A program made the translations under genes and the position numbers. The notes under the pieces were generated by a model that saw nothing but the letters and a program-made list of their open reading frames with translations, had not been told where the DNA came from and made no database searches. From an uncultured Acidobacteriaceae bacterium (lineage in GTDB: Bacteria > Acidobacteriota > Terriglobia > Terriglobales > Acidobacteriaceae), in assembly GCA_963735215.1 (NCBI GenBank), contig CAVTKF010000015.1, forward strand, positions 572,294 to 636,293: 64,000 bases of DNA, written 5' to 3'. Below are positions 4,836 to 28,173 of the stretch, one piece after another (within the stretch, counting starts at the first letter, position 1; each line of letters starts with the position of its first letter).

Positions 4836-5222
4836 CTAACTCTCAAGTCCGAGAACAGAGCGCGCTTTGGCAACAAGAGCATCGGGATCGAATGGCTTGG
4901 TCATGTAGATGTCCGCACCGACCTCTATGCCACGCTGGCGATCGAACTCCTGTCCCTTCGCGGTGAGCAGCACGATGTAGATGTGATCCATGCCGAGTTC
5001 TCGCTTGACGGCATGGCACACATCGAATCCGTTCTTCTTCGGCATCATCACATCGAGGAAGACCATCTTCGGCTGCTCGCTGCGAATGGTTTCGAGAGCC
5101 TCTTCGCCATTTGTGGCAGTGAGAAGCTCTACGCCATCGTCTTCGAGTTCCTCAAGCGCCTGCTGGATCAAAGTGCGCAGATGCGGCTCGTCATCGACAA
5201 TAAGAATTTTCATAGGGTTCAT
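4836..5222 (-). CDS. single-domain response regulator (CheY-like receiver)
   Basis: 128 aa. '[13 protein letters not shown]...', phospho-acceptor context '[13 protein letters not shown]', and 'LLTAKG...TKPF'. Its ATG overlaps the kinase stop as ATGA (5219-5222). Confidence 0.9.
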
Positions 5223-12645: not shown

Positions 12646-12905
12646 TATGCGGCTGATAAGAGCGACGCTGGCAGATGCAACGCAAAGATCGTGGGAGGCT
12701 AGAAGCCCTTGCGGGATCGCTTGCGCCCGGTGCAGCCGACAACTAAACTCATCCAGTGCAGTAACATTGGGGAATTGAAGGCACGGCCTGGAATGCCGGA
12801 GCGTGGCCTTCCTTCTCAAGAGCCTTCCCGGTGGAATCCGATCACGGTTGCGCCCCCGGGTTTATCGAGAGAGTGCCGGAATTAGTGCGACCGGAGGTCA
12901 GAGGA

Positions 12906-14129
12906 ATGCGCGTCGGCATATTCACACGTGAGTATCCCCCCCTGGTGTACGGCGGCGCGGGCGTCCATGTCGATTACTTGAGCCGGGAATTGGCCAAGGA
13001 GATTGAAGTCGAAGTGCATTGCTGGGGACCGCAGAACTCCGACGCTGGTAATTTGCACGTTCGTGGAGCAGAGCCCTGGCAGGAGATTTCCAATGGGACC
13101 GAGGGGAAATTCAAAGGCGCGCTCGAGGCCTTCAGCCTGAACCTGACACAGATCAAGGCCCTCGAAGGAATCGACATCGTCCACACGCACACGTGGTATG
13201 TATCGATGGCGGGATTCCTGGCGAAGAAACTCTACGGCGTGCCATTCGTGTTGACGACACACTCACTTGAACCATTGCGCGCATGGAAGGCGGAGCAACT
13301 GGGCAGCGGTTATTCGATGAGTTCGTGGATGGAGCGGACCGCAATTCTGGATGCCGACGCGGTCATCGCTGTATCGCAAGGGACGAAAGCCGATATACAA
13401 AAGGCGTATCCCGAAGTCGATCCGGCGCGCATCCACGTTATTTATAACGGGATCGATCTGGCTGAATATCAGAAGACCGCGGAGACCAAGGCGCTGACGG
13501 ATTATGGCGTCGATCCGGCGGTTCCGTATGTGCTGTTTGTGGGGCGCATAACGCGGCAGAAGGGCGTGACGCACCTGGTGGATTCGATTCGCTATTTGCC
13601 GGCCGAGACGCAGGTGGTGCTGTGCGCCGGCGCGCCGGACACGCCGGAGATTGCGACCGAGCTTCGCGAGAAGGTAGAGGCGGCGCGGAAGGATCATCCG
13701 CGCATTGTCTGGATCGAAAAGATGGTGACCAAGCAGGAGGCGATCCAGCTCTACAGCCATGCGCGCGTTTTCTGTTGCCCATCGGTTTATGAGCCGTTCG
13801 GGATCATCAATCTTGAGGCGATGGCTTGCAGGGCGCCGGTGGTTGCGAGTGCGACGGGCGGCATCAAAGAGGTAGTCGTCGATGACAAAACTGGTTACCT
13901 GGTTCCATTCGATCAGGATCCCGTGACGAGCTTTCCGCGCGATCCGGAGGGATTTGCGAGGGATCTGGCGGGGCGGCTTAACGAGCTATTACGGGATCCG
14001 GAGAAATGCAGGCGGTTCGGAGATGCAGGCAGGCGGCGGGTGGAAGAGATCTTCAGCTGGACGGCGATCGCGCATCAGACGATCGATCTGTATGAACGTT
14101 TGATCGAACAAAAGAAGACGAAGAAATGA
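12906..14129 (+). CDS. glgA: GT4 glycogen synthase of the actinobacterial GlgA/GlgM type (ADP-glucose-dependent; probable maltose-1-phosphate-forming glucosyltransferase)
   Basis: N-terminus 'MRVGIFTREYPPLVYGGAGVHVDYLSREL' closely matches, from memory, the Corynebacterium/Mycobacterium GlgA(GlgM) family. The C-terminal half is typical GT4 ('FCCPSVYEPFGIINLEAMACRAPVVASATGGIKEVV'). Start set at ATG 12906 with GGAGG 8 nt upstream; the listed ORF start 12831 is an upstream extension. Confidence 0.8.
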   Translation: MRVGIFTREYPPLVYGGAGVHVDYLSRELAKEIEVEVHCWGPQNSDAGNLHVRGAEPWQEISNGTEGKFKGALEAFSLNLTQIKALEGIDIVHTHTWYVSMAGFLAKKLYGVPFVLTTHSLEPLRAWKAEQLGSGYSMSSWMERTAILDADAVIAVSQGTKADIQKAYPEVDPARIHVIYNGIDLAEYQKTAETKALTDYGVDPAVPYVLFVGRITRQKGVTHLVDSIRYLPAETQVVLCAGAPDTPEIATELREKVEAARKDHPRIVWIEKMVTKQEAIQLYSHARVFCCPSVYEPFGIINLEAMACRAPVVASATGGIKEVVVDDKTGYLVPFDQDPVTSFPRDPEGFARDLAGRLNELLRDPEKCRRFGDAGRRRVEEIFSWTAIAHQTIDLYERLIEQKKTKK

Positions 14130-14210: not shown

Positions 14211-16208
14211 ATGACAACAAAGACATCCGATGGACGCAGGCGCGTCATTATTGAAGGAATCACGCCGCAGGTGGACTGTGGCCTATTTCCAGCCAAGCGC
14301 ACTGTAGGCGACGAGGTGCGTGTGGAGGCCGACATTTTTACCGATGGCCACGATGCGATTGCGGCGTCTCTGCTGGCGCACCGGGAGGGCTCCGACGAGT
14401 GGACCGAGATTCCGATGCATCCGCTGGTGAATGACCGGTGGCAGGCATCATTTCGAGTCGCGGAGCTGGGCCGTTACGGATACAAGGTGCAGGGGTGGGT
14501 AGATCACTTTGAGACCTGGAGACGCGATCTGCTGAAGCGCATCAAGGCCGAGAGCGACGCATCCATTGACTACCTGATTGGGGCGGACCTTGTAGCGGAG
14601 GCGGCAACGAGGGCTTTGGGCGGGGACGCAGTGTGGTTACGCGAGCGCGCTGCTGTTCTGCGTTCAGCAAAAACGGCGAGCGAACTCAGGATTCATGCGA
14701 CGGACCCGATGCTGCACGAACTGGTCTTACGCTATCCCGACAAGCGCTTTGCGACCGAATCGAATCCAGAGTTGACGATCGTCGTCGAGCCGGTGCGCGC
14801 GCGATTCAGTTCGTGGTATGAATTCTTTCCCCGCTCGTCTTCTGAGAAACCCGGAGCGCACGGCACATTTGCGGACTGCGAAAAGAGACTGCCCTACATT
14901 GCGGAGATGGGATTCAATGTTGTGTACCTGCCCCCAATTCATCCAATTGGGCGCACCTTTCGCAAGGGACGCAATAACAATCCGGAAGCACAGCCGGGCG
15001 ATTGCGGCAGCCCGTGGGCAATCGGGGCCAAGGAAGGCGGACATAAGGAGATCCTGAGCGATCTCGGAACCGTAGAAGATTTCAAGCGATTTGTGGCTAA
15101 GGCCGGAGAACTCGGGATGTCTGTCGCACTGGATATCGCGTTCCAGGCAGCCCCGGATCATCCATATGTAAAGAAGCATGAGACCTGGTTCAAGAAGCGT
15201 CCGGATGGGACGATTCAGTATGCAGAGAATCCTCCGAAGAAATACCAGGACATTTATCCCTTTGATTTTGAAAGCGGAGATTGGGAAGGGATGTGGACGG
15301 AGCTAAAGAGCGTTTTCGTCTACTGGATCGGCATGGGAGTGACGATCTTCCGCGTCGATAATCCGCACACCAAGGCGTTTCCTTTCTGGGAGTGGGTAAT
15401 CACCGAGATCAAGCGCGATCACCCCGAAGTGCTCTTTCTCGCAGAAGCATTTACGCGGCCGAAGATTATGTACCGGCTGGCGAAGCTGGGATTCAGCCAG
15501 TCGTACACCTATTTTCCGTGGCGCAATGGGAAGCACGAAATCACGACTTATCTCACCGAATTGGCGCAGACGCCGGTACGCGAATTCTTCAGGGCAAATC
15601 AATGGCCAAATACACCAGATATTCTTACCGAGTTTTTGCAGATGGGCGGCCGGCCGGGATTCGTGATCCGGCTGCTATTGGCGGCTACTCTCGGCGCGAA
15701 CTACGGGATCTATGGACCGCCATTCGAGTTGCAGGAGAATAGACCTGTTAAGCACGGCAGCGAAGAATACCTGAATTCTGAGAAGTACGAGATCAGGCAT
15801 TGGGACCTGGCGCGCCCCGATAGCTTGCGAGAATTCATTGGCCAGGTCAATAGAGTCCGCAATGAGAATCTAGCTCTGCAAAATGACTGGTCATTAAAAT
15901 TCCATTCCACCGATAATGATCAGCTGATTTGCTACAGCAAGGAATCGGATGATCGCTCGAATCTGCTTGTGATGGCGGTTAATCTTGATCCCCACCATTC
16001 GCAATCCGGATTCATCACGTTGCCTTTGGACGAGCTGGAAATTCCGCAGGATCGTAGCTTTGAGGCCGAAGACCTGCTGTCGGGCGAGCGATACTTGTGG
16101 CAAGGCCCGCGCAACTATGTGGATCTGAATCCATCGACAAGATCAGGACACATTCTCAAGATCCATCGCCGAATGAGGGTCGAGACGGACTTCGAATACT
16201 TTCTCTAG
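14211..16208 (+). CDS. glgE: alpha-1,4-glucan:maltose-1-phosphate maltosyltransferase
   Basis: 665 aa. N-terminus 'GRRRVIIEGITPQVDCGLFPAKRTVGDEVRVEADIFTDGHDAI' and GH13 core 'FRVDNPHTKAFPFWEWVI...LAEAFTRPKIMYRLAKLGFSQSYTYFPWRN' are characteristic of GlgE. Confidence 0.9.
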   Translation: MTTKTSDGRRRVIIEGITPQVDCGLFPAKRTVGDEVRVEADIFTDGHDAIAASLLAHREGSDEWTEIPMHPLVNDRWQASFRVAELGRYGYKVQGWVDHFETWRRDLLKRIKAESDASIDYLIGADLVAEAATRALGGDAVWLRERAAVLRSAKTASELRIHATDPMLHELVLRYPDKRFATESNPELTIVVEPVRARFSSWYEFFPRSSSEKPGAHGTFADCEKRLPYIAEMGFNVVYLPPIHPIGRTFRKGRNNNPEAQPGDCGSPWAIGAKEGGHKEILSDLGTVEDFKRFVAKAGELGMSVALDIAFQAAPDHPYVKKHETWFKKRPDGTIQYAENPPKKYQDIYPFDFESGDWEGMWTELKSVFVYWIGMGVTIFRVDNPHTKAFPFWEWVITEIKRDHPEVLFLAEAFTRPKIMYRLAKLGFSQSYTYFPWRNGKHEITTYLTELAQTPVREFFRANQWPNTPDILTEFLQMGGRPGFVIRLLLAATLGANYGIYGPPFELQENRPVKHGSEEYLNSEKYEIRHWDLARPDSLREFIGQVNRVRNENLALQNDWSLKFHSTDNDQLICYSKESDDRSNLLVMAVNLDPHHSQSGFITLPLDELEIPQDRSFEAEDLLSGERYLWQGPRNYVDLNPSTRSGHILKIHRRMRVETDFEYFL

Positions 16209-16360: not shown

Positions 16361-19300
16361 GTGAAGAAGATCGCAAGCACAATCGATCCGCTCTGGTATA
16401 AAGACGCGATCATTTACGAGATTCACGTGCGCGCGTTTTCTGACTCCAACAATGACGGGATCGGAGACTTTCCGGGACTAATTTCGAGGCTCGACTATCT
16501 GTCGGATCTCGGAGTGACCTGTATCTGGCTTCTACCCTTCTTCCCTTCGCCCTTGCGCGATGACGGGTACGATATCGCGAATTACATTGATGTGAATCCG
16601 TCGTATGGGACGTTGAGCGACTTCAAGCGATTTCTCGATGAGGCTCACCAACGCAATATGCAGGTGATGATCGAACTGGTCATCAACCACACGAGCGACC
16701 AACACCCGTGGTTCCAAGCGGCAAGGCTGGAGCCGCCCGGCTCGCCCGAGCGGGAGATGTACGTCTGGTCAGAGTCGGATCAGCTCTACAAGAACGCGCG
16801 CATCATCTTTACCGATACAGAAAAATCCAACTGGACATGGGACGAGGCTGCCCAGGCCTACTACTGGCATCGCTTCTTCTCGCACCAGCCGGATCTGAAC
16901 TGGGATAATCCGCGCGTGATGGAAGAAGTGTTGAAGGCCATGCGCTTCTGGCTCGATATGGGCGTGGATGCGTTGCGCATGGATGCCATTCCTTATCTCC
17001 TGGAGCGGGATGGAACTTCGTGCGAGAATCTGCCGGAGACGCATGACGTCATCAAAGCGATCCGGGCAGCGATCGATGCCGAATATGCCAACCGCCTGAT
17101 CCTGGCAGAAGCGAATCAATGGCCTGCGGATGTGCGCCCTTACTTCGGCGATGGCGACGAGTGCCACATGGCATTTCATTTCCCACTGATGCCGCGTATC
17201 TACATGGCTCTCAGGCAGGAAGATCGACTGCCCATCACGGACATCATGGCGCAGACACCCCCCATTCCAGATAGCTGCCAGTGGGGATTGTTTCTCCGCA
17301 ATCACGATGAGCTGACGCTGGAGATGGTGACCGACGATGAGCGCGACTACATGTACTTCGCGTACTCGGCCGATCCTCGGATGCGTATTAATGTCGGCAT
17401 TCGGCGGAGGCTCGCGCCGCTGGTCGACAATAATCGCCGGCGCATTGAGCTGCTCAATTCACTGCTGCTGAGCTTTCCCGGCACACCGATTCTTTACTAC
17501 GGCGACGAAATTGGGATGGGCGACAACATCTACCTCGGCGACCGCAATGGCGTGCGAACGCCGATGCAGTGGACTTCGGATCGCAATGCCGGGTTTTCAA
17601 AGTGCGATCCGGCGCGGCTTTATTTGCCCGTTGTAATGGATCCCATCTACGGATACCAGGTAGTCAATGTAGAAGCGCAGCTCGCCGACCAGTCGAGTCT
17701 TCTGCATTGGACGCGAAACATGATCGCGCTGCGCAAACTGTTCCAGGTTTTCGGCCGGGGAAGCCTGAGCTTTCTGAACCCATCGAACAGGAAGATCCTT
17801 GCCTATTTAAGGGAACTCGAGCAGGACGATACCACTCATGAAACGGTTTTATGCGTTGCCAACCTTAGCCGGTTTGCACAACCGGTTTCGCTGGACCTGG
17901 CAGCTTATGAAGGCAGGGAGCCGGTCGAAATGCTGGGGTACGTGCCTTTCCCCACCGTCACTGCCGAGCCGTATCAGTTGACGCTCGCCCCGTATTCTTT
18001 TCTGTGGCTTGAACTGCAGACCCCGAGCTCCGAAGCAAAGTCTCTGCCGGAACCTCAACTTGTGCCGGTACCAGATACGGCCGGAACAGAAGCGCCCCCG
18101 GTTGATTTCGCGACCGCAGGATGGTCGGGGCTTCTCACCGCAAGCGGTCTCGCACAAATTGAATCCGCCTTGCCGGCGTGGCTCGCGCGCCAGCGCTGGT
18201 TTGGGGCGAAGAGCAGAAGAATTCAATCCGCGAGCGTTCGACAGTGGGCCGATCTATCCGTTGTAGAGTCTGGCATCAAGGACCTCCAACCTGGGAACCG
18301 GTCCGCGGCAGTTCCGGCGCCGCCCGCCATCTTCTTCGTAGAAGTGAGCTACTTTGATGGTGAGCCTGACACCTACCAGCTGCCCCTTTCGATCAGCACC
18401 GGCAACCATGCCGATACGGTGACTTCCGAGCACCCCAACAGTGTTCTGACAACGCTGACTTCCGTATCCGGTGTAGCTGTTCTGCATGATGCAACGGCAC
18501 GCGAGGATTTTCGTCAGATGGCGTTGGTGCTGATTGAGCGGAACGCGTCAGTGCCGCTCACGAGCATGCTTGCATCGGGATTGTCGAGGGGCCCGCAGAA
18601 TTTCGAAGTGGATGGCGACGGACCTCTTTCAACGTCAGAAAAGAAGTCATCAGCCGAGGCAGGAGCTGGCCATGACACAAGCAGCCTTCCTGTGCGGCCA
18701 TTGCCGTTACATGCGCAACCTGGGCAAGCAGCATCCGAGCCGCGGACAGCGAATCCTGAGCCGAGTACCGCCAACTCGCAAAAGAGTGAGCCGCGCGAAT
18801 CGCCCGCCACGGGCGGCGCCAGTGGCGTAGAAGGAACGCTCAATGCGCATTCTTCGACGGCCTTGCGCGAGATGAAAATCGAAAGGACTTTGCCATCGCG
18901 CGTCGGCTCGGCCGAGCAATCGAACAGCTCTATCCTCTATGGTGAAGCGCTGATACTGAAGTTGTTCCGGCGGATGCAACCGGGAGAGAATCCCGATGTG
19001 GAGATTGGAAAATTCCTTACTGAAGTTGCGCATTTCGATCGGATAGCCCCATTCCTTGGTGAGATCTCCGTGGCGCGGCGATCGGGTGACAAGACGACGG
19101 CAGCCATGCTGCAAGGACTGGTGGCCAACGAAGGCGATGGCTGGGCATGGTTCCTTCATCAACTTTCGAATTTCTACGAGGCAGTTGCAATGGCCCAAGA
19201 GGCGCCCGATGTGTCTTCACCGGGATTTGGAAACGCAAGAACACAGCGAGATCGGGTGCCAGCAATCGCCCAGGTTGCGATGGAAGCGTCTGCACTCCTT

Positions 19301-20053
19301 GGCCGCCGCACAGCCGAGATGCACCTCGCCTTGAGTTGCTCCCCAACTGACCCCAAATTTGCGCCGGAACCCTGTTCTCATGACGATCTGGAGACGGATG
19401 CCGGCCTGATTGAAGCACAGATCCGTTCAGCGCTGGAAGCTCTCAAATCGAAGTTCTCGATCCTGGATGAATCCGCGTCAGACGATGCGGGCCTGCTACT
19501 GTCAAAACGCCGGGAACTGATCGAGCGCAGCCACGCCATTCTGAGACTGCCTGCAGCCGGGCAACGCATTCGCATTCATGGCGATTATCATCTGGGCCAG
19601 ACCCTCCGAACCGGTGCTAAAGACGGCACAACAGGTGGTGATTTTGTCATGCTGGACTTTGAAGGCGAGCCTGCACGTCCACTCTCGCAACGCCGCCGCA
19701 AGCAGTCGCCGCTGAAAGATGTAGCGGGGATGCTGCGTTCTTTCTCTTACGTCGCATTTGCCGGGCTGAAGCAGTACCAGGAAGCCACCGATAAAGTCGC
19801 GCGGCAACCCGGATCTCCAAACTTGAGCAAGTGGGCCGAGGCGTGGCAGAACTGTGCGTCTGCCGAATTTTTGCATGCCTATCACGAAACCATCGCAAAA
19901 AATTCAGCCCTGCTGCCCTCGGCGCAAGAGACCCAAACTCTGTTGGAGGCATTTGTCCTGGAGAAGGCGCTTTACGAGTTGCAATATGAGCTCAACAACC
20001 GTCCAACGTGGCTACACATCCCAATTGCAGGTATCCTATCGTTGTGCAGATGA
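16361..20053 (+). CDS. treS: trehalose synthase (maltose alpha-D-glucosyltransferase) fused to maltokinase (TreS-Mak/Pep2)
   Basis: 1230 aa, GTG start with GGGAGA 8 nt upstream. N-terminal GH13 TreS ('LWYKDAIIYEIHVRAFSDSNNDGIGDFPGL...LPFFPSPLRDDGYDIANY'). C-terminal maltokinase ('EQSNSSILYGEALILKLFRRMQPGENPDVEI', 'IHGDYHLGQTL...MLDFEGEP'). A roughly 100-aa low-complexity insertion lies in the kinase N-lobe region. Confidence 0.9.
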   Translation: MKKIASTIDPLWYKDAIIYEIHVRAFSDSNNDGIGDFPGLISRLDYLSDLGVTCIWLLPFFPSPLRDDGYDIANYIDVNPSYGTLSDFKRFLDEAHQRNMQVMIELVINHTSDQHPWFQAARLEPPGSPEREMYVWSESDQLYKNARIIFTDTEKSNWTWDEAAQAYYWHRFFSHQPDLNWDNPRVMEEVLKAMRFWLDMGVDALRMDAIPYLLERDGTSCENLPETHDVIKAIRAAIDAEYANRLILAEANQWPADVRPYFGDGDECHMAFHFPLMPRIYMALRQEDRLPITDIMAQTPPIPDSCQWGLFLRNHDELTLEMVTDDERDYMYFAYSADPRMRINVGIRRRLAPLVDNNRRRIELLNSLLLSFPGTPILYYGDEIGMGDNIYLGDRNGVRTPMQWTSDRNAGFSKCDPARLYLPVVMDPIYGYQVVNVEAQLADQSSLLHWTRNMIALRKLFQVFGRGSLSFLNPSNRKILAYLRELEQDDTTHETVLCVANLSRFAQPVSLDLAAYEGREPVEMLGYVPFPTVTAEPYQLTLAPYSFLWLELQTPSSEAKSLPEPQLVPVPDTAGTEAPPVDFATAGWSGLLTASGLAQIESALPAWLARQRWFGAKSRRIQSASVRQWADLSVVESGIKDLQPGNRSAAVPAPPAIFFVEVSYFDGEPDTYQLPLSISTGNHADTVTSEHPNSVLTTLTSVSGVAVLHDATAREDFRQMALVLIERNASVPLTSMLASGLSRGPQNFEVDGDGPLSTSEKKSSAEAGAGHDTSSLPVRPLPLHAQPGQAASEPRTANPEPSTANSQKSEPRESPATGGASGVEGTLNAHSSTALREMKIERTLPSRVGSAEQSNSSILYGEALILKLFRRMQPGENPDVEIGKFLTEVAHFDRIAPFLGEISVARRSGDKTTAAMLQGLVANEGDGWAWFLHQLSNFYEAVAMAQEAPDVSSPGFGNARTQRDRVPAIAQVAMEASALLGRRTAEMHLALSCSPTDPKFAPEPCSHDDLETDAGLIEAQIRSALEALKSKFSILDESASDDAGLLLSKRRELIERSHAILRLPAAGQRIRIHGDYHLGQTLRTGAKDGTTGGDFVMLDFEGEPARPLSQRRRKQSPLKDVAGMLRSFSYVAFAGLKQYQEATDKVARQPGSPNLSKWAEAWQNCASAEFLHAYHETIAKNSALLPSAQETQTLLEAFVLEKALYELQYELNNRPTWLHIPIAGILSLCR

Positions 20054-20128
20054 CCGGCAGCAGGTTGGTTGAGCCGGCCAGCCAGTTAAACTACCATTCC
20101 GCTTTGGCACGACCTTCCCCCGTTCCTT

Positions 20129-21319
20129 ATGGCGACCGCGAATTCAGTTTCGGATGCCCACACCTCGGCCACTCCGGTCCGAGCGGATTTGCTGGTCTTT
20201 GTCGCGCCTATGGCTGCGGAGTCGCTCGAAAATCTTTTCGCCAATCTGGCGGCGGTGTTTCCGCCAGAAGACCTGGTGATCGCAACTCCGAATGACACCT
20301 CGGGGACCGCTTATCCCGCCTTGCGTGTGGTGTCTACGCAAGCTACCGATGCGGTATGGCCTCTCGCAGCATCTGACTTTGTGAATGCAGCGAATGCCGC
20401 CAAAGCAAATGAGGCACGCGCGGTTTTGATGCTAGGCCCTGGCGCGGAGTCTCTGAGCACTTCAGCAATTCGCGACCTGGCTGGCGCCGTATCCGATTCC
20501 ACATTTGACCTGGCGGCTCCGCACTACTCGATTCCGCCGAACGCCGGGTTGGTGAACTCCGCCATTCTCTACCCGTTGACCCGCGCACTATTCGGTTCAC
20601 GAACACGGTTTCCACTGTCGATCGACATGGCATTCTCTGCCCGCATGGCCGATCGGCTGGCGAACACCGCGCAGCGCTTTGTCAATTTGAACCAGTCGGA
20701 CGCCATCCTCTGGCCTGTGAGCGAAGCGGCGGTTGCCGGCCTAAGTGTGGATGAGATCGACGTAGGCACTCGCATTTTGCCGCAACCTGCTGAACCAAAC
20801 GTCAATACGATTCTCACCCTGGTTACGGGATCTCTGTTTGCCGACATTGAGGCGAAGGCGGCTTTCTGGCAGCGCCCTCGCCGTCTTCCACCGGAGCAGC
20901 GCATCTTCCCTTCGATCCATGGAATCGAAGGGGATGTTGATATCGTGCCCATGGTCGAAGCGTTTCGCCTGGCATTTTCAAACTTGCAGGAGATCTGGTC
21001 TCTCGTGCTGGCCCCGAATTCTCTGCTGGGGTTGAAGCGGCTTTCTGTGGTTGAACCCTCTGCATTTCGTATGCCGGAGAATCTCTGGGCCCGCATTGTG
21101 TTTGATTTTCTGGTGGCCTACAGGCTTCGTACTCTGAATCGTGGACATCTGCTGGGCGCGCTGATTCCACTCTATCTCGCGTGGGTTGCGGGACATATCA
21201 ATGTCGTGAAATCTGGCACCAGTTCCGAGGTTCACGTGGAGGCAGGGGCCGCTGCATTTGAATCAGACAAGCAGTACATCGTCTCGCGCTGGCGTTGGCC
21301 AGACAGATTTAACTCATGA
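20129..21319 (+). CDS. uncharacterised protein, GT-A (GT2-like) glycosyltransferase-like, no obvious DXD motif
   Basis: 396 aa, 75 nt downstream of treS-mak. From memory, 'DLAAPHYSIPPNAGLVNSAILYPLTRALFGSRTRFPLSIDMAFS' and 'LWARIVFDFLVAYRLRT...LLGALIPLYLAWVAGHI' resemble glucosylglycerate-synthase-type GT-A proteins. The expected DXD position reads 'LMLGPGAES'. Confidence 0.6.
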   Translation: MATANSVSDAHTSATPVRADLLVFVAPMAAESLENLFANLAAVFPPEDLVIATPNDTSGTAYPALRVVSTQATDAVWPLAASDFVNAANAAKANEARAVLMLGPGAESLSTSAIRDLAGAVSDSTFDLAAPHYSIPPNAGLVNSAILYPLTRALFGSRTRFPLSIDMAFSARMADRLANTAQRFVNLNQSDAILWPVSEAAVAGLSVDEIDVGTRILPQPAEPNVNTILTLVTGSLFADIEAKAAFWQRPRRLPPEQRIFPSIHGIEGDVDIVPMVEAFRLAFSNLQEIWSLVLAPNSLLGLKRLSVVEPSAFRMPENLWARIVFDFLVAYRLRTLNRGHLLGALIPLYLAWVAGHINVVKSGTSSEVHVEAGAAAFESDKQYIVSRWRWPDRFNS

Positions 21320-21389
21320 TGCTCAGTTTGAGAGAGAACTCGTTCGATTCAGCGATGACCCGGTTTGAGTAGTTCAAGGAGTGAGTCCG

Positions 21390-22217
21390 ATGCATCGATT
21401 CCTCGCAACAATGCTCCAGACGATTCAAGACCCGAATTCTTCGCCTCCTCCCGTGATGACGGATAGCGGAACGATTTGGCACCACATGTCTGACGCGCTT
21501 CAGCAGTCCGTGTATCGCGTGCTGTCGCTGTTCATCGCAGTCCTGCCGGGCATCCTGGCGGTATTCGTCGCATTGACTCTGTTCACGTTAATCGGGATAG
21601 GGCTGTCCACGCTTCTACGAAAGGGGCTCACGTTGCTCAAGTTCGACGAGCGACTGAATCGCACCAGTTCGGAGTGGGCCCCTTCGAGCTCTCCAACAGC
21701 CCTGATCGCCCGTGTCGCATTCTGGGGCTGCGTTCTGCTTGGATTGATCATTGGAGTGTCGGCATTCGACGCATCCTACGCAACGGGCGCGCCCTTGCCG
21801 GTTTCCATGCTGCCCTACCTGACGCACATGGTCGGAGCCATCCTGCTGCTCATCGCTGGCACCTTAATCGCACGGTTCCTGGCACGTTCCGTGCTTATCG
21901 GGGCGGTGAACGCCCAACTACAATATGCGAGGTTTCTCTCACTGGGTGTGAAATGGCTGGTGCTGGTGCTTACCGCTGCAATGGTGCTCGATCACCTTCA
22001 GGTCGGCGGGAACGTAGTTGAACTTGCATTCGGGATTTTGTTTGGCGGCATCGTGCTGACGCTCGCGCTGGCGGTAGGTCTTGGATCGCGCGACCTGGTC
22101 AGTCGATCGCTTGAGGGCCGCGTGGACCGATCGAACGAACGGGCGCACGGGTCACAGACGGAAGCTGAACCCGCGCCGGTGGAGCCTATACGGCACGAGA
22201 CAATTCGGCACTTCTAG
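21390..22217 (+). CDS. multi-pass membrane protein with 'conserved TM helix'-type repeats (as in MscS-related channel N-terminal regions)
   Basis: Hydrophobic segments 'VLSLFIAVLPGILAVFVALTLFTLIGIGL', 'ARVAFWGCVLLGLIIGV', 'MVGAILLLIAGTLIARFLA', 'LSLGVKWLVLVLTAAMVL', 'LAFGILFGGIVLTLALAVGLG'. ATG 21390 has AAGGAG 8 nt upstream; GTG 21381 is the listed alternative. The stop overlaps the stop of convergent treZ. Confidence 0.7.
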   Translation: MHRFLATMLQTIQDPNSSPPPVMTDSGTIWHHMSDALQQSVYRVLSLFIAVLPGILAVFVALTLFTLIGIGLSTLLRKGLTLLKFDERLNRTSSEWAPSSSPTALIARVAFWGCVLLGLIIGVSAFDASYATGAPLPVSMLPYLTHMVGAILLLIAGTLIARFLARSVLIGAVNAQLQYARFLSLGVKWLVLVLTAAMVLDHLQVGGNVVELAFGILFGGIVLTLALAVGLGSRDLVSRSLEGRVDRSNERAHGSQTEAEPAPVEPIRHETIRHF

Positions 22218-23962
22218 AATTCTGCGTTGGTTCGAAGGACTGCGACGGAATCAGCTGGCAGGATGATGCTGCCGCGTTCGACGGCGATGTTCGATCGAGA
22301 TGCAAGAACCAGTTTGGCATCAAGCCCGGTCTGTATCGACCGGGGAATCGAGTCCAGATTGCAAGCCACAACGATTGATCCGCGAGTCATGCAGAGCCAT
22401 TTCTGCTCTTCGCTAAAGGTGACTTTTGTATTTCCAGGTTCTCCGTCGTTCAAGGAGGGCGTCGAATGCCTTAGCTGAATTAGCTTCCGGTACCAGGCGA
22501 GCATTTCGGCATGAGACGGTTTTGGAAGTTCGTCCCAATGCAATTTCGAGCGCTCGAACGTATCGCCACTTTCAGGGTCGGGGATGGCCGCAGTATCCCA
22601 GCCGAAGGCCACGAACTCGCGCCTCCGCCCTTCTGAAACCCGGCGAGCCAGTTCGCTGTCGGCGTGATCGGCGAAGTATTGGAACGGCGACGTCGCCGCC
22701 CATTCTTCGCCTTGAAACAGCATTGGAATGAAGGGGCCAAGCAGTACCAGCGCTGCGGCAATCTTCGCGCGATCGATTCCCGCAATTTGTGCAATTCTGT
22801 CACCGACGGCTCTGTTGCCGACCTGATCGTGATTCTGGATGAAGCCTAAAAAACGATGCTGGGTGAGACCTCCTACTGGGCGGCCGTGGATTCGTTTGCG
22901 ATACCAGGAAAAAATCCCGTCGTAGACGAAAGTCTTCTCGAGTGCTTTGGCGAGTTGAGCAAGTGTTCCGAAATCCCGGTAATAGCCGGTGGGAGTTTTC
23001 CGGTCGAGAACAGCAAAGAGTGCATGGTGAAAATCATCACTCCACTGTGCGTCGATACCGAAACCACCGCAATCGCGTGGGGTCACGATGCGCGGATCGT
23101 TCAGATCGCTCTCCGCGATTAAGAGCAGGCTACGGCCAAGCGTTGCACCGAGAGTTTCCACTCCCATTGCCAGTTGTTCGAGAAAGTGGATCGCAGAGCG
23201 ATCCACGAAAGAATGCACTGCATCGATGCGCAATCCATCAATATGGAAATCGCGCAACCACATTTGCGCGTTGTCACAGAAGAATCGACGCACCTCATAT
23301 GAGCCTGCCTCTTCAAGGTTTACGGCGCCTCCCCAGGGTGTTTTATGGGCATCCGTGAGATACGGACCGAACTTTCCGGTGTAATTCCCGGATGGACCGA
23401 AGTGGTTGTAGACAACATCGAGCAACACCGCGATGCCAAGGCTATGAGCAGCATTGACGAATCGCTTCAATCCATCGGGCCCGCCATACGGTTCGTGTAC
23501 GGCAAAAAGAGCCACGCCGTCGTAGCCCCATCCATGATTGCCATCGAAGGCCGCCACGGGCATCAGTTCTACATGGGTGACGCCGAGATCGCGAAGATAT
23601 TCAAGCTTTGCGATCGCGGAATCAAATGTACCCTCTTGCGTGAATGTTCCCAGATGGAGCTCGTAGATAACAGCACTCGATAAGGGTCTAGCCTGAAAGC
23701 CCTGATCAGTCCAGCGAAAAGCATTCTGGTCGTAGACACGGGAAAGAGCATGAACGCCATTCGGCTGCCACTGGGACCTGGGGTCGGGCTTGGGGTTACG
23801 ATCCTCGCCGATCAGGAAACCGTAGTCTGTACCAGGGCCAGCGGAATCGACATCAACGCTCCACCAAGCGTTATCATCTGGCCCAGACATGGGGTATGGC
23901 CTGTCGTCGGCTTGCACAGAAATGGAATGCGGGAGCGGCGCCCAAACCTTGAATTCATGCAT
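22214..23962 (-). CDS. treZ: malto-oligosyltrehalose trehalohydrolase
   Basis: 582 aa. 'FKVWAPLPHSISV...' N-domain and GH13 core 'GIAVLLDVVYNHFGPSGNY', 'DGLRIDAVHSF', 'LLIAESDLNDPR', 'IQNHDQVGNR'. Starts 3 nt after the treY stop. Confidence 0.9.
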   Translation of the reverse strand: MHEFKVWAPLPHSISVQADDRPYPMSGPDDNAWWSVDVDSAGPGTDYGFLIGEDRNPKPDPRSQWQPNGVHALSRVYDQNAFRWTDQGFQARPLSSAVIYELHLGTFTQEGTFDSAIAKLEYLRDLGVTHVELMPVAAFDGNHGWGYDGVALFAVHEPYGGPDGLKRFVNAAHSLGIAVLLDVVYNHFGPSGNYTGKFGPYLTDAHKTPWGGAVNLEEAGSYEVRRFFCDNAQMWLRDFHIDGLRIDAVHSFVDRSAIHFLEQLAMGVETLGATLGRSLLLIAESDLNDPRIVTPRDCGGFGIDAQWSDDFHHALFAVLDRKTPTGYYRDFGTLAQLAKALEKTFVYDGIFSWYRKRIHGRPVGGLTQHRFLGFIQNHDQVGNRAVGDRIAQIAGIDRAKIAAALVLLGPFIPMLFQGEEWAATSPFQYFADHADSELARRVSEGRRREFVAFGWDTAAIPDPESGDTFERSKLHWDELPKPSHAEMLAWYRKLIQLRHSTPSLNDGEPGNTKVTFSEEQKWLCMTRGSIVVACNLDSIPRSIQTGLDAKLVLASRSNIAVERGSIILPADSVAVLRTNAEF

Positions 23963-23965
23963 CGC

Positions 23966-26620
23966 TCAGCTCTCTTCCTTGACCAGCAGTGCCACGGGAA
24001 AGAGGCGCAGGAGATTCTGCATGGAAACGCGCCCACCGTCCAATATCTCATCGGTGAGCAAGTTTTTCCAGCGCCCCCCGGGCAGGTCAACCATCGTGTT
24101 CGACCATCTCCCGCCAAGCTTTAAATTCCATCTTGGAACAATTGTTGCGAGACTTCCAGCTCGCAGATAACCCATGGCGTGATCCGTCTTTCTTCCCTCA
24201 ATCGTAAGCGGAGTGAAGTCTGCACCTGCTCCAAACAACTCCGGCCGACGCCGCCGAAGATGGAGCGCGCAGTAGAGCAACCAGAGCTTCGGCATGCCGC
24301 TATCCATTCCCTTCAGAATCTCTTCGACCGCCATACCTGATTCCAGTTCTGACAGCAGCGATTGCCTTGCCCCATAATCGATTGGCCCGCGATTATCGGG
24401 ATCCACAAGATGAAGATCCCACATTTCGCTCCCTTGATAGGTGTCCGGAACTCCCGGAGCGGTACATTTCAGCAGGGTTTGTGCGAGACTGTTCACTCTT
24501 CCGGGGGCGATGATGCGGGTCACGAATTCGTCGAGTGATGCCATGAACTCCGAGTTGCCATAAAGGCGCTCGATGAAGGTCTTGAGAGCATCTTCAAATT
24601 CCTTGTTTTGCTGTGTCCAGCTTGTTTGCTGCTTGGCTTCGCGTACTGCCTTCAGCATGTAGGTGGACAGTCTGTCGAAGTCAATTGGCCATGCGCCGAT
24701 CATTGTCTGGTATAGAAAGTATTCCGTATTGCGATCGGGTTGACTTTGTGTTTTGAAGGGAGCATTCAGGCGCGACCAACGCTTCAGAGATGCCTTCCAT
24801 CGGCCCGGCTCCTCCGTCATGACCGCGAGCCGTGCGCGCACATCGTCGGACCGCTTGGTGTCGTGGGTTGAGAGCGTGGTCATGGTGAGGGGATGAGTGG
24901 CCTGCATCTTCTCGCAGTAATCGAGAAATTCCGAGGTGGCAACGCCATTACAATCCGGCGCATTGCCAACTTCGTTTAACCCGATCATGCGGTTGAAGCA
25001 ATAGAAGGCTGTGTCTTCTACGCCTTTTGCCATCACGGGTGAAGTGAACTGCTGGAACCGGTGGACAAATTCGGTTTCGAGCGGCCCTTGGGAACGCAAG
25101 AGCAGCACGTCCGCGATGAAGTCAAGCAGGCCGGCGTCGAGGTCGGGTCTTTGGCTCTTGGCTCTTTCCACGGCACTTGCGACTTCGCTGCGATCCTCGT
25201 CCGCGATCTCATCCCGTTCCGGCACGACGTAGGTTCTATAGACAGCGAAGCAGGAGGCAACTTCGCGGATGGCACGCCTGATTTCTGCTCGCGTGAAATC
25301 ACGGCGATCGCGGTTGTTTTCGCAGATTTCGACGAAGAGACTGGCGAGGCGGTTCACATCGCTGCCCAGCGCTTCCTGTTCGACGTTGAGCTTTTTGTCG
25401 TGGGCAATGGGGATGAAATCGGTCGGCTGTTGGGTGAACTCTTTGTATATCTGCGTCAGCTCTTTTAAGCCATCCGGTTGCATCAGCCAGTCATTGCACA
25501 CATTCAGGAAGTCGTAGCCGCTGGTGCCGTCGATGGGCCAATTTTCGCGAAGGAACTCTCCTGGCTCGAGTATCTTTTCGCCAATGATCCAGGCATCAGG
25601 AGACCGTTGCCGCAAACGCGTGAAGTATTGAAGTGGATCGCGCAGACCGTCAGGATGATCAACGCGAACTCCATCGAGAACGCCCTCGCGAAGCCAATCG
25701 AGGATGCGCCGATGTGTCGCATCGAAAACGTGTGGCCGCTCAACGCGCAAGCCAACTAGAGTGTTCACATCGAAGAATCGGCGATAGCCAAGTTCCTGGT
25801 CGGCAACACGCCAGTAAGCCAGTCGGTAGTGTTGCAGGTTCAGCAGCTGATCCAGAGAGTCATGATCCGCATTCAGCTCGCGAACGGCTTTGTCGATTGC
25901 CTGAAGCGTCTCAGGTTGCTCTTCACAGAACCGTTGCAGGAGGCCGTAGATGACCACCTTGTCGCGGTGTCGCGAATTGATCCCCTCAACGTCCGTCGGA
26001 TCCGGCACCGGCAAGCGGGACAAGCTGTCAGAGAGAAAGCTAAGGGTCGGACTGTTCGCGAATCGAGCCGCTCGATTAAGAATGACAGGCAAAGAACGTG
26101 GGGCGAGAGGGTAGATATTCTCGACGTATCGGACACATAAGGAACCGTGATCGCGATCGACCTGAATCTGGCCCGCAGCCAGCACGCGGCCATACTGGTC
26201 GCCCAGGACAGGTATCAGAACCTTGTTCTGAAGTTTGACTTCCGATGAGTGCCAGTCGATGTCGAACCACGTGGCAAAACGGCTCGACGGTCCATTCTCG
26301 AGAACATCCCACCAGTTCTGGTTGCCGGCGCCGGTCGCCATGTGATTCGGTACGATATCGAGCACCTGGCCAAGCCCGAGTTCTGCGAGACGTGCACAAA
26401 ATCGCTGATGGCCCTCCTCGCCACCTAGTTCTTCATTCACACGCTGATGGTCGACGACATCGTAACCGTGCATGCTACCCGGAGCCGCTTGTAGATACGG
26501 CGAACAATAGATGTGCGAAACACCCAGCTCCTTCAAGTAAGGAGCAACCTTCGCTGCGTCGTCGAATGTAAAATTCGCGTGCAACTGGAGCCGGTATGTC
26601 GAGGTGGGAACGCGCGGCAT
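23966..26620 (-). CDS. treY: malto-oligosyltrehalose synthase
   Basis: 884 aa. 'PTSTYRLQLHANFTFDDAAKVAPYLKELGVSHIYCSPYLQAAPGSMHGYDVVDH...LDIVPNHMA...DGVRVDHPDGL' is the characteristic TreY N-terminal GH13 signature. Confidence 0.9.
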   Translation of the reverse strand: MPRVPTSTYRLQLHANFTFDDAAKVAPYLKELGVSHIYCSPYLQAAPGSMHGYDVVDHQRVNEELGGEEGHQRFCARLAELGLGQVLDIVPNHMATGAGNQNWWDVLENGPSSRFATWFDIDWHSSEVKLQNKVLIPVLGDQYGRVLAAGQIQVDRDHGSLCVRYVENIYPLAPRSLPVILNRAARFANSPTLSFLSDSLSRLPVPDPTDVEGINSRHRDKVVIYGLLQRFCEEQPETLQAIDKAVRELNADHDSLDQLLNLQHYRLAYWRVADQELGYRRFFDVNTLVGLRVERPHVFDATHRRILDWLREGVLDGVRVDHPDGLRDPLQYFTRLRQRSPDAWIIGEKILEPGEFLRENWPIDGTSGYDFLNVCNDWLMQPDGLKELTQIYKEFTQQPTDFIPIAHDKKLNVEQEALGSDVNRLASLFVEICENNRDRRDFTRAEIRRAIREVASCFAVYRTYVVPERDEIADEDRSEVASAVERAKSQRPDLDAGLLDFIADVLLLRSQGPLETEFVHRFQQFTSPVMAKGVEDTAFYCFNRMIGLNEVGNAPDCNGVATSEFLDYCEKMQATHPLTMTTLSTHDTKRSDDVRARLAVMTEEPGRWKASLKRWSRLNAPFKTQSQPDRNTEYFLYQTMIGAWPIDFDRLSTYMLKAVREAKQQTSWTQQNKEFEDALKTFIERLYGNSEFMASLDEFVTRIIAPGRVNSLAQTLLKCTAPGVPDTYQGSEMWDLHLVDPDNRGPIDYGARQSLLSELESGMAVEEILKGMDSGMPKLWLLYCALHLRRRRPELFGAGADFTPLTIEGRKTDHAMGYLRAGSLATIVPRWNLKLGGRWSNTMVDLPGGRWKNLLTDEILDGGRVSMQNLLRLFPVALLVKEES

Positions 26621-26734: not shown

Positions 26735-27979
26735 TCAGGTCAGCAGAGCGGCCAGGATCGCAAAGAATAGTGAAATCGGCATGATGATCATTCCAACTCT
26801 GAAGAACTGCCAGCCGCTTATCTCGAGCCCCTCGCGTCGGATGGCGGTGAGCCAGAGAATCGTGGCAATCGAGCCCGTGATGGAAAGGTTTGGGCCGAGA
26901 TCAATTGCGATCAGGACCACTCTTGCGAAAATCGGCTGAAGGGGAACCGTGCGCAAGGTCGCTCCTGTGATTAGTCCGAGAGGGAGATTGTTGACGAGGT
27001 TTGTGCCAAAGGCCAACGCAATTCCAAGCGCGAATGCCGCTTGAGCAGACGGCAGGTGCAGAAGTCTCTCGAATGCATTCTGAAGCAGGCGCATGGCTCC
27101 GGCGTTCTTCACTGCTTCAACAATGACAAACAGAGCGGCAACGAGCGGAAGCACGCTCCAGCTGATCTCCCGCACCAGGCGGATCGGATTGGACCTGCTT
27201 CGGATCACCACGATTGTTGTAACTGCGATGGAGGCCAAACACGTCGGCAATCCAAGATCCATCTTCAAGGCCGAGGCGACGAGCAATACAGCCGCGACCG
27301 CAAGGATTCCGAACAGGCTGATCTTTCCCATGCCGGAAAGATATACATCCGACGTCGAGCCATTGCAGGACGCAGACAGACCTTTGCGGCTGTGCCAGCG
27401 AAGCAGCACGTAGGTGATCACGATGGCTGCCAGTGAGGGGGCGCTAAACATGGCGAGCCATTGAATCAAGGGCGGCATGGCCGAATTGAAGACAACCAAA
27501 TTTGCGGGATTGGAGATGGGAAGAACAAAGCTGGCCGCATTTGCGATGAGCGCGCAGGAAAGAAGGTACGGCAGTGGCTGAGCCTTGGCGCGCTTGACTG
27601 CCGTCAGGACCGCCGGAGTGAGCACAACAGCGGTAGCATCATTCGACATGAAGATTGTGACCAATGTGCCGACCGCGTAAATCAAGGTGAATAAGCGGGC
27701 CGAAGATCCGTTCGCCAGTCTGACTGCAATATTCGCCATCCAGGCGAACACGCCCTGATCTTTGGCGAGCTCAGCGAGAAGCATCATGCCGGTGAGGAAC
27801 AGATACACATCTAGTCCTTCAGCAACAGCCTTGCCCGCAAGGGTTAGCGGTATGAGCCGTAAAATGCAAAGCAAAATAGCGCCGCCTGAGGCCCAAACCG
27901 CCTCGGGCATTTTGAATGGCCGAAACAGCATCAGGACAATGGTCAATATCGAAATGGTCCATATGAGGAAATGCGCCAT
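26735..27979 (-). CDS. ArsB/NhaD-superfamily permease (arsenical-pump/citrate-transporter-like)
   Basis: About 10-12 TM segments. The N-terminal pattern 'FLIWTISILTIVLMLFRPFKMPEAVWASGGAILLCIL...LDVYLFLTGMMLLAELAKDQGVFAWMA' is typical of ArsB-like pumps. Start could be 27979 (MAHFLIW) or 28027 (listed ORF). Ends 114 nt upstream of treY on the same strand. Confidence 0.8.
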   Translation of the reverse strand: MAHFLIWTISILTIVLMLFRPFKMPEAVWASGGAILLCILRLIPLTLAGKAVAEGLDVYLFLTGMMLLAELAKDQGVFAWMANIAVRLANGSSARLFTLIYAVGTLVTIFMSNDATAVVLTPAVLTAVKRAKAQPLPYLLSCALIANAASFVLPISNPANLVVFNSAMPPLIQWLAMFSAPSLAAIVITYVLLRWHSRKGLSASCNGSTSDVYLSGMGKISLFGILAVAAVLLVASALKMDLGLPTCLASIAVTTIVVIRSRSNPIRLVREISWSVLPLVAALFVIVEAVKNAGAMRLLQNAFERLLHLPSAQAAFALGIALAFGTNLVNNLPLGLITGATLRTVPLQPIFARVVLIAIDLGPNLSITGSIATILWLTAIRREGLEISGWQFFRVGMIIMPISLFFAILAALLT

Positions 27980-28173
27980 TATCGCTTCGGTCTGCCCCCG
28001 CATGCGTGAATTCCGAAACTCGAACATGGCAACGCTTTTTGGGGGCCCTCAATTCCCCAGAGATGGGGCGGCAAGGGCTCGCTGAGGTTTTGCAAAGTAC
28101 AGACCTCCAGAATGGATAGCGCTCTGGGTTTGATGCGCAACAAGGTGCTACCCAAAACATTTTCGCATCAAGC

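Follow-up and report, generated by a model that had tools for sequence, protein, structure and literature searches.

Why are two genes that NCBI labels hypothetical enclosed by five genes of trehalose and alpha-glucan metabolism? The question is raised by a window of 64,000 nucleotides from an uncultured Acidobacteriaceae bacterium (assembly GCA_963735215.1, contig CAVTKF010000015.1, positions 572,294 to 636,293), the window being the whole stretch of DNA that was analysed; coordinates below refer to it and to its plus strand unless stated. Two open reading frames (ORFs) lie downstream of a treS-mak fusion gene. ORF1 (20129..21319) encodes, from an ATG start, a two-domain protein of 396 aa that resembles glycosyltransferases (GTs) of the GT-A fold and MGS/GpgS type and has degenerate catalytic motifs. 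ORF2 (21390..22217) encodes a predicted five-helix membrane protein of 275 aa, with helices matching PF05552 and without the channel domain of MscS. The answer that we favor, and to which we would give about an even chance, is that the two proteins form an accessory module of trehalose metabolism in which TreS-Mak is acted on by a GT-like subunit without catalytic activity, together with a membrane sensor. The host locus is that of a Terracidiphilus-like acidobacterium, and the exact ORF1 and ORF2 proteins are present in Terracidiphilus metagenome-assembled genomes (MAGs). Relatives of ORF1 are named either 'glucosylglycerate synthase' or hypothetical by JGI.

Pairing of ORF1 and ORF2 beside trehalose genes

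Both ORF1 and ORF2 have thousands of homologues. The ORF1 family is made up of 1,049 clusters at 50% identity, species-representative genomes contain at least 545 stretches that match it, and its range takes in at least the Acidobacteriota and the Nitrospirota; among 10 distant cluster representatives, no member name was informative. The ratio of nonsynonymous to synonymous substitution rates (dN/dS) is 0.06-0.085 for ORF1, 0.065-0.086 for ORF2, and 0.08-0.11 for TreS-Mak, all of which are approximate values as dS is near saturation. Both genes are under strong purifying selection and, given this and the thousands of homologues, neither ORF1 nor ORF2 is a chance ORF. The possibility that ORF1 is a decaying pseudogene was also considered and is ruled out by a dN/dS at least as low as that of TreS-Mak.

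Gene order was compared in two samples. The genome loci are the best 80 matches (Terracidiphilus, Occallatibacter, Granulicella, and Edaphobacter; all Acidobacteriaceae), and the distant sample consists of 80 metagenome loci found with the canonical-motif alignment as seed, whose ORF1-family proteins are 37-75% identical to the family member P0336 and ~30% identical to ORF1. Where the Acidobacteriaceae contigs leave room for a neighbor, ORF2 is directly 3' of ORF1 in every case (79/79) and TreS-Mak is directly 5' in 75 of 77. An ORF2 homologue directly follows the ORF1-family gene in 60 of the 61 distant loci with room, and TreS or Mak directly precedes it in 23 of 55. The ORF1/ORF2 pair is ancient, near-obligate, and embedded in trehalose pathways, and its synteny with trehalose and glucan genes in relatives extends beyond the scope that had been proposed in a preliminary description of this DNA.

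The settings of the distant pairs are varied. In L147, the ORF1-family gene and ORF2 are preceded by OtsA and followed by OtsB, DUF5752, and TreT, while in L170 the order is TreY-like, GlgX, DUF5752, TreT, ORF1-family gene, ORF2, TreS, and Mak. L169 reads GlgB, TreS-Mak, ORF1-family gene, ORF2, and a PAS-HisKA kinase; L088 has GlgX beside a run of the ORF1-family gene, ORF2, and GlgE; and in L145 and L164 the pair is followed by a HAD phosphatase. A 41-nt overlap between the stop of TreS and the start of the ORF1-family gene recurs in distant loci (L083, L096-L102, L106, L107, and L109), and its constant length suggests translational coupling. On one contig, beside otsA/otsB, TreS and an ORF1-like protein are fused into a single protein that is followed by ORF2. 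A second candidate, P0385, was examined as a Mak::ORF1 fusion and rejected as a frameshift artefact, having garbage low-complexity sequence between its parts and only a partial ORF1 match.

Several observations made along the way concern these neighborhoods. The only Acidobacteriaceae loci among the best 80 without TreS-Mak 5' of ORF1 are two Edaphobacter-like ones (L077 and L078), in which TreZ-TreY lies ~2.3 kb upstream of ORF1 on the other strand with one unidentified gene between. An ORF1 with 59-60% identity occurs in MAGs labelled Limisphaerales and Binataceae (L038 and L071); these contigs may be mis-binned acidobacterial DNA and not true occurrences in other phyla. The DUF5752 gene is paired with TreT beside the ORF1/ORF2 module in two unrelated loci (L147:10860-12745 and L170:6986-8855) and may be another uncharacterised trehalose accessory. 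In the two Nitrospirota-type loci whose GT motifs are all canonical (L145:9944-10837 and L164:9977-10801), the phosphatase 3' of ORF2 is a HAD Hydrolase_3 protein, an arrangement which hints that those organisms make a glycoside solute by way of a synthase and a phosphatase.

Fold, catalytic motifs, and constraint in ORF1

From its own sequence, ORF1 is hard to place. It has no match in Pfam or NCBIfam at E <= 0.01, falling below the thresholds of PF00535, PF21969, and NF010496, and a single-sequence phmmer search of the PDB returned noise only. Structure prediction is more informative. An AlphaFold2 (AF2) model built on a 97-sequence alignment reached a pLDDT of 91 and a pTM of 0.89 (a shallow alignment of close relatives gave a pLDDT of 59.7 and was discarded), and it is composed of an alpha/beta GT-A domain (residues ~20-222) followed by a C-terminal domain of helices (~225-390). 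The top Foldseek matches are seven chains of the Rhodothermus mannosylglycerate synthase MgS (2y4m/2y4k/2bo4), in which both domains are matched (E 4e-8 to 3e-7, TM-score 0.55-0.63, ~410 columns). These are followed by matches to the GT-A domain only, namely GpgS (E 3e-5), ArnC, hyaluronan/chitin synthases, and MpgS; the Foldseek probability is 1.00 for MgS, GpgS, and MpgS. Sequence profiles lead to the same group, as GpgS is matched at E 0.007 by the whole-family profile and at E 9e-8 by that of the motif-bearing (canonical) subgroup, and in both profile alignments the GpgS segment 'fiDSDL' falls on the DXD column of the ORF1 family. Because Foldseek and the profiles agree, the predicted fold of ORF1 is the GT-A fold of the glycosyl-glycerate synthase (MGS/GpgS) group.

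The catalytic residues of this group have been described in detail (Pereira 2008). Ribose is bound by Glu54 of GpgS (MgS Glu11), and the catalytic set includes Lys114 of the GpgS Pro-Gly-Lys motif (MgS Lys76) as well as Glu232 (MgS Asp192), an acidic residue that binds O4/O6 of the donor sugar. The DXD motif is Asp134-x-Asp136 in GpgS and Asp100/Asp102 in MgS. The second Asp binds the metal together with His258 (MgS His217), and the first is part of an Asp-Lys-Glu network said to be strictly conserved in retaining GT-A enzymes. A PLSGE motif shapes the donor-sugar site of both proteins.

The positions that hold nucleotide and metal are changed in ORF1, as judged from 77 syntenic Acidobacteriaceae orthologues with 52-98% identity. 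The loop that aligns with the D-S-D of GpgS is L102-G103-P104-G105-A106-E107 (20432..20449); it lies in the segment 'LMLGPGAES', which follows beta-strand 98-102 of the model and is thus at the DXD position. The first DXD position (103) is G74/S3 and never Asp, the third (105) is E42/G30/D2/N2/R1, and in at least 9 orthologues the loop is without any acidic residue. At the Pro-Gly-Lys site, ORF1 has P78-L79-A80, and the Lys column reads T48/K11/A9/S4/R2. The equivalent of the metal-His loop, to which GpgS 'LGVRAHRNR' aligns, is G213-T-R-I-L-P-Q-P220 (20765..20788), where position 217 is L/M/V/I/Q/T and never His. The N-terminal PxYN and DGGSxD motifs are lost as well, with ORF1 reading APMAAES and PNDTSG. 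Taken together, the alignments indicate that ORF1 is without the donor-nucleotide and metal residues (both DXD Asp, the Lys, and the His). What is preserved is an acceptor-side core seen in the orthologue alignment, N143-S144 ... YPLTRALF ... R160-F-P-L-S-I-D166 ... S170 (20555..20638), in which the donor-sugar motif PLSGE/PLGGE is kept as P162-L163-S164-I165-D166 with Asp in place of Glu. Residues N143, S144, P149, R152, R160, P162, D166, W195, and E199 are invariant. The counterpart of GpgS E232/MgS D192 could be D191 (D44/E23 of 77) or the invariant E199, in a region where the profile alignment is unreliable.

Several proposals of the preliminary description can be judged at this point. The ORF1 peptide segments that it quoted are present in the translation, the GT-A fold is supported by the AF2 model and by Foldseek (MgS, then GpgS), and no intact DXD emerged, as profile alignments do place 'LMLGPGAES' there. 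The resemblance to glucosylglycerate-synthase-type enzymes that it noted coincides with the automatic JGI label of the family. It had left a choice between a divergent sugar transferase and a non-catalytic partner binding glycan or nucleotide; the non-catalytic option is now the better supported, and binding of nucleotide by such a partner is unlikely, as the subdomain for that purpose shows the lowest conservation in the protein.

If the JGI label were correct, ORF1 would be a genuine glucosylglycerate synthase (GgS; EC 2.4.1.268), making glucosylglycerate from nucleoside diphosphate-glucose and glycerate. The name is attached to many close and distant homologues, the structural neighbors of ORF1 are all glycosyl-(phospho)glycerate synthases, and a HAD phosphatase lies 3' of some canonical family members. 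We nevertheless consider this identity very improbable, and it is the least likely of the rival explanations because the metal ligands are missing: the Acidobacteriaceae clade has neither the two DXD Asp nor the Lys or the metal-binding His, and the GgS of Persephonella marina reportedly needs Mg2+ or Ca2+. In addition, no curated Pfam or NCBIfam model matched ORF1, and the NCBI label is hypothetical.

The state of the motifs differs with genomic context. Nitrospirota members without TreS keep PSYNN, DGGSTD, D[SA]D, and K-x-H, while TreS-adjacent groups of the ORF1 family read DAG, DGG, or DAS at the DXD, and GPG or GPE is found there in the Acidobacteriaceae clade and in the TreS::ORF1-like fusion. 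Among the 86 representatives nearest ORF1, 10 have DxD, 15 Dxx, 41 xxD, and 20 neither Asp. Motif loss in the ORF1 family tracks TreS linkage, and the 'glucosylglycerate synthase' label is applied by JGI whatever the motif state. The label is probably wrong for the TreS-linked clades, which would amount to a systematic mis-annotation in metagenome databases.

Selective constraint has been redistributed along with the motifs. Overall mean pairwise identity is equal in the Acidobacteriaceae ORF1 clade (0.607) and in the canonical Nitrospirota members (0.608), but identity of the nucleotide-binding (N-)subdomain is 0.436 in the former versus 0.637 in the latter, and that of the helical domain is 0.694 versus 0.512. 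The C-terminal helical domain (residues 225-392 by the model helices, 20801..21304) is the most constrained part in the Acidobacteriaceae clade and has the lowest dN within ORF1. In the Acidobacteriaceae clade, constraint on ORF1 is thus no longer centered on the nucleotide-binding subdomain, having shifted to the C-terminal helices. At the end of that domain is a hallmark motif, RWRWPDRF (R387-F394, 21287..21310), which is near-invariant family-wide and present in 75 of 86 representatives. Since this motif is, like ORF2, constant across the family, the tail is suggested to contact ORF2 or the membrane.

These patterns also bear on the possibility that ORF1 is still an enzyme, either non-Leloir or metal-independent, with ORF2 as its membrane anchor. 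Such an enzyme could take its sugar from a sugar-1-phosphate produced by its neighbors, either the maltose-1-phosphate that Mak supplies or glucose-1-phosphate, and add it to glycerate or another small acceptor, so that a compatible solute or a GlgE primer would be formed. The lost residues are those that hold nucleotide and metal, which a sugar-phosphate donor would make needless, the sugar/acceptor pocket is invariant (N143, S144, R152, R160, P162-L-S-I-D166 with its PLSGE-like motif, W195, and E199), and the gene is directly 3' of mak. We regard this as unlikely all the same. Use of a sugar-1-phosphate donor is not known for any GT-A enzyme of the ORF1 lineage, the Asp-Lys-Glu network is broken at 2/3 positions, the N-subdomain drifts as if ligand-free, and the near-obligatory membrane partner would go unexplained.

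ORF2 and a proposed function for the module

Hydropathy analysis of ORF2 predicts five helices, with positive charge in the cytoplasmic loops and charged residues in the C-terminal tail. PF05552 is matched in two stretches (28 bits against a cutoff of 22). Residues 139-212 (21804..22025) are homologous to TM1-TM2 of MscS, the first two transmembrane (TM) helices, known as the sensor paddle, with hhalign aligning them to E. coli MscS residues 23-98 (83%, E 8.9e-6); an hmmsearch of the ORF2 family profile against PDB MscS chains likewise hits E. coli MscS residues 23-99 (E ~0.02). The MscS-N-terminal likeness first proposed for ORF2 is thus borne out by both PF05552 and the TM1-TM2 homology. The likeness ends there. 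A search for PF00924, the channel domain, in ORF2 and 5 distant homologues gave no match at E <= 10, and the NF033912 'msc' match is sub-threshold (55.8 bits versus a cutoff of 100) and covers model positions 167-363 only. Homology of the last ORF2 helix to the MscS pore helix TM3a is unsupported, as the hhalign alignment ends before TM3a, and the protein itself ends 43 residues after the last predicted helix. From the TM1-TM2 homology, the missing PF00924, and an alignment that stops short of the pore helix, ORF2 is best described as an MscS sensor paddle without the channel body. In the nearest MAG, where ORF1 is 98% identical, the identity of the ORF2 match (L001:11262-12089) falls to 69%, and a 161-aa fragment of ORF2 is recorded from the same contig; the assembly probably contains a frameshift at this point.

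It is conceivable that ORF2 is instead a minimal MscS-like solute-release valve, for which ORF1 would act as a cytoplasmic cap or gate replacing the MscS cage, so that trehalose is jettisoned on hypo-osmotic shock in the manner proposed for the MSC of T. tenax. In favor of a valve, besides that precedent, a Gly/Ala-rich helix, FGILFGGIVLTLALAVGLGS, occupies the TM3a position after the TM1-TM2 homology of ORF2, the cytoplasmic domain is missing from ORF2 while a soluble partner always adjoins it, and the module is found beside several routes of trehalose synthesis and not TreS alone. A valve is quite unlikely in our view, as the MscS alignment stops before TM3a, PF00924 has no match, and a valve does not explain why motif erosion in ORF1 is specific to TreS-linked lineages.

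The reading that we prefer, an accessory module acting on TreS-Mak, would proceed as follows. ORF1 would descend from retaining GT-A glycosyl-glycerate synthases (MGS/GpgS/GgS-like). In TreS-linked lineages, it has lost the donor and metal residues but has kept an intact acceptor- or sugar-side pocket and a highly constrained helical domain, and its most likely role would be that of a subunit which serves TreS-Mak without catalysis, by binding a ligand, by regulation, or as a scaffold. The predicted inner-membrane protein ORF2, with the lipid-facing TM1-TM2 paddle of MscS retained and no cytoplasmic cage, would most likely tether ORF1 to the membrane and report membrane tension or osmotic state. 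Together, they may tune the flow from trehalose through maltose and maltose-1-phosphate to GlgE-made alpha-glucan. We infer physical contact among ORF1, ORF2, and TreS-Mak, the regulatory role, and the osmotic signal, and the idea of an osmotic module, already put forward in the preliminary description, is one suggested by genomic context.

A more specific form of this proposal, which we advance tentatively and consider rather doubtful, is that ORF2 and ORF1 are a split mechanosensor that gates an enzyme, TreS-Mak, and not a pore: a paddle without a channel body is joined to a pseudoenzyme that transmits the signal. If true, membrane tension or turgor would set the partition between trehalose and osmotically inert alpha-glucan, and a metabolic step would be under direct mechanical control across several bacterial phyla.

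A number of points weigh against the preferred reading. The residue equivalences among ORF1, GpgS, and MgS come from profile alignments and model secondary structure without coordinate superposition. Glu is found at the second acidic DXD position in 42/77 orthologues, in many of the rest an Asp or Glu stands two residues further on, and a weakened metal site may therefore persist in part of the Acidobacteriaceae clade. Metal-independent GT-A enzymes exist, so motif loss alone is not proof of inactivity. The invariant PLS(I)D, N143-S144, R152, R160, and E199 would also fit a working active site. Finally, the sole credible TreS::ORF1-like fusion is a single metagenome sequence.

Two further observations concern possible regulators. 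A 1677-aa hybrid sensor kinase with Reg_prop/Y_Y_Y propeller, GAF, HisKA, HATPase_c, and receiver domains is encoded on the minus strand at 5219-10252, ~2.6 kb from glgM, and a PAS/HisKA hybrid kinase is found directly 3' of the ORF2 homologue in two distant loci (L083:4920-7166 and L169:11350-14078). Hybrid kinases near the ORF1/ORF2 module may represent a recurring regulatory link.

Layout of the locus and comparison with known systems

The enclosure by five trehalose/alpha-glucan genes noted in the preliminary description is confirmed by curated models. The same-strand gene run is headed by a gene of the glgM/GlgA_Coryne type (12831..14129; TIGR02149, 567 bits against a cutoff of 302; Pfam GT4/GT1), followed by the maltosyltransferase gene glgE (14211..16208; PF11896 at 4e-56 and PF21702 at 1.6e-28) and the treS-mak fusion (16361..20053; TIGR02456, 932 bits, and TIGR02457, 413 bits), which is directly upstream of ORF1. 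Convergent to this run on the minus strand are treZ (22214..23962; TIGR02402, 714 bits) and treY (23966..26620; TIGR02401, 927 bits). Both known routes to maltose-1-phosphate, the GlgM-type GT4 and TreS-Mak, are present in the one same-strand run with GlgE between them. Downstream of treY, an ArsB/CitMHS-type permease gene (26735-28027, minus strand) keeps its synteny in the closest relatives (L001, L005-L009, L012, and L026).

The coordinates of ORF1 and ORF2, the spacers of 75 and 70 nt, and the overlap of stop codons with treZ all hold as originally reported. The spacer between treS-mak and ORF1 (20054..20128) has no promoter-like, terminator-like, or unusually stable structure (fold z-score 0.30), and promoter, terminator, and RNA-structure scans of the spacers around ORF1 found nothing, a result that fits co-transcription of ORF1 and ORF2 with the upstream genes, short of proof. 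Within the second spacer (21320..21389), an AAGGAG Shine-Dalgarno sequence (21376..21381) sits 8 nt 5' of the ATG at 21390, which is why this start is favored over the GTG at 21381 given in the ORF list. A CTAG holds both the TAG stop of ORF2 (22215-22217) and, on the minus strand, the stop of treZ (22214-22216), which have 2 nt in common. No space is left for an intergenic terminator, so that each transcript has to terminate within the gene on the other strand.

Trehalose and alpha-glucan of the GlgE type have a central part in how soil bacteria survive desiccation and osmotic stress, and also in mycobacterial virulence. In Granulicella, the TreS, GlgE, and OtsA proteins rise under high-sugar stress. 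A literature search found no description of a TreS-linked GT/MscS-like pair. In the portion available of a 2024 Chem Rev survey of alpha-glucan enzymes, TreS and Pep2 are treated at length, the terms 'mechanosensitive' and 'glucosylglycerate' never occur, and the regulation of flux through TreS-Mak is described as unresolved. The ORF1/ORF2 module is widespread and apparently undescribed. As the ORF1 family forms a natural series from intact enzyme to pseudoenzyme, the regulatory hypothesis is directly testable.

The components of the module are from known superfamilies. MgS of Rhodothermus marinus (GT78; 2BO4, 2Y4K, and 2Y4M) is the best structural match of ORF1 and shares both the GT-A and the C-terminal helical domains, and a few ORF1-family members match Pfam MGS_GT. 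Sequence identity to ORF1 is 14-15%, however, and Asp100/Asp102, Lys76, and His217 of MgS are without counterparts in ORF1. The RWRWPDRF motif is specific to the ORF1 family, and a membrane partner, which the family has in ORF2, is not mentioned in the MGS literature consulted. GpgS (GT81; 4Y6N and 7PDO) is the sole solved family detectable from ORF1-family sequence profiles, and the GT-A domains of the two superpose in Foldseek. The GpgS model NF010496 is matched by 18/24 canonical ORF1-family members, although with scores far under the curated cutoff (43.7 versus 262 bits for P0336, the only score listed). GpgS has no comparable C-terminal helical domain, and ORF1 has no equivalents of its D134, D136, K114, and H258. 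The P. marina GgS, whose single-step reaction of ADP-glucose with D-glycerate gives a compatible solute, is linked to the ORF1 family by its JGI/IMG name and not by sequence comparison. E. coli MscS (2OAU and 6RLD) has TM1-TM2 in common with ORF2 residues 139-212, and the topology of ORF2 fits; ORF2 differs in having two extra N-terminal helices and no PF00924 channel/beta domain.

The general logic of the module has one archaeal precedent. In the msc-gt-tpsp operon of T. tenax, a PimA-like GT4 protein activates TPSP non-catalytically by complex formation and shares its transcript with a 197-aa protein whose likeness to MscS is limited to the transmembrane part; the operon is considered by the authors to be unique to Thermoproteales (Zaparty et al. 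2013, PMC3634074). In both systems, a GT-like protein and an MscS-TM-like protein accompany a trehalose enzyme, although the enzyme is TPSP in the archaeon and not TreS-Mak, and the likeness of its MSC to ORF2 is one of description, without sequence comparison. The T. tenax GT has the GT-B fold and is non-homologous to the GT-A protein ORF1, and the resemblance between the archaeal operon and the ORF1/ORF2 module is therefore convergent.

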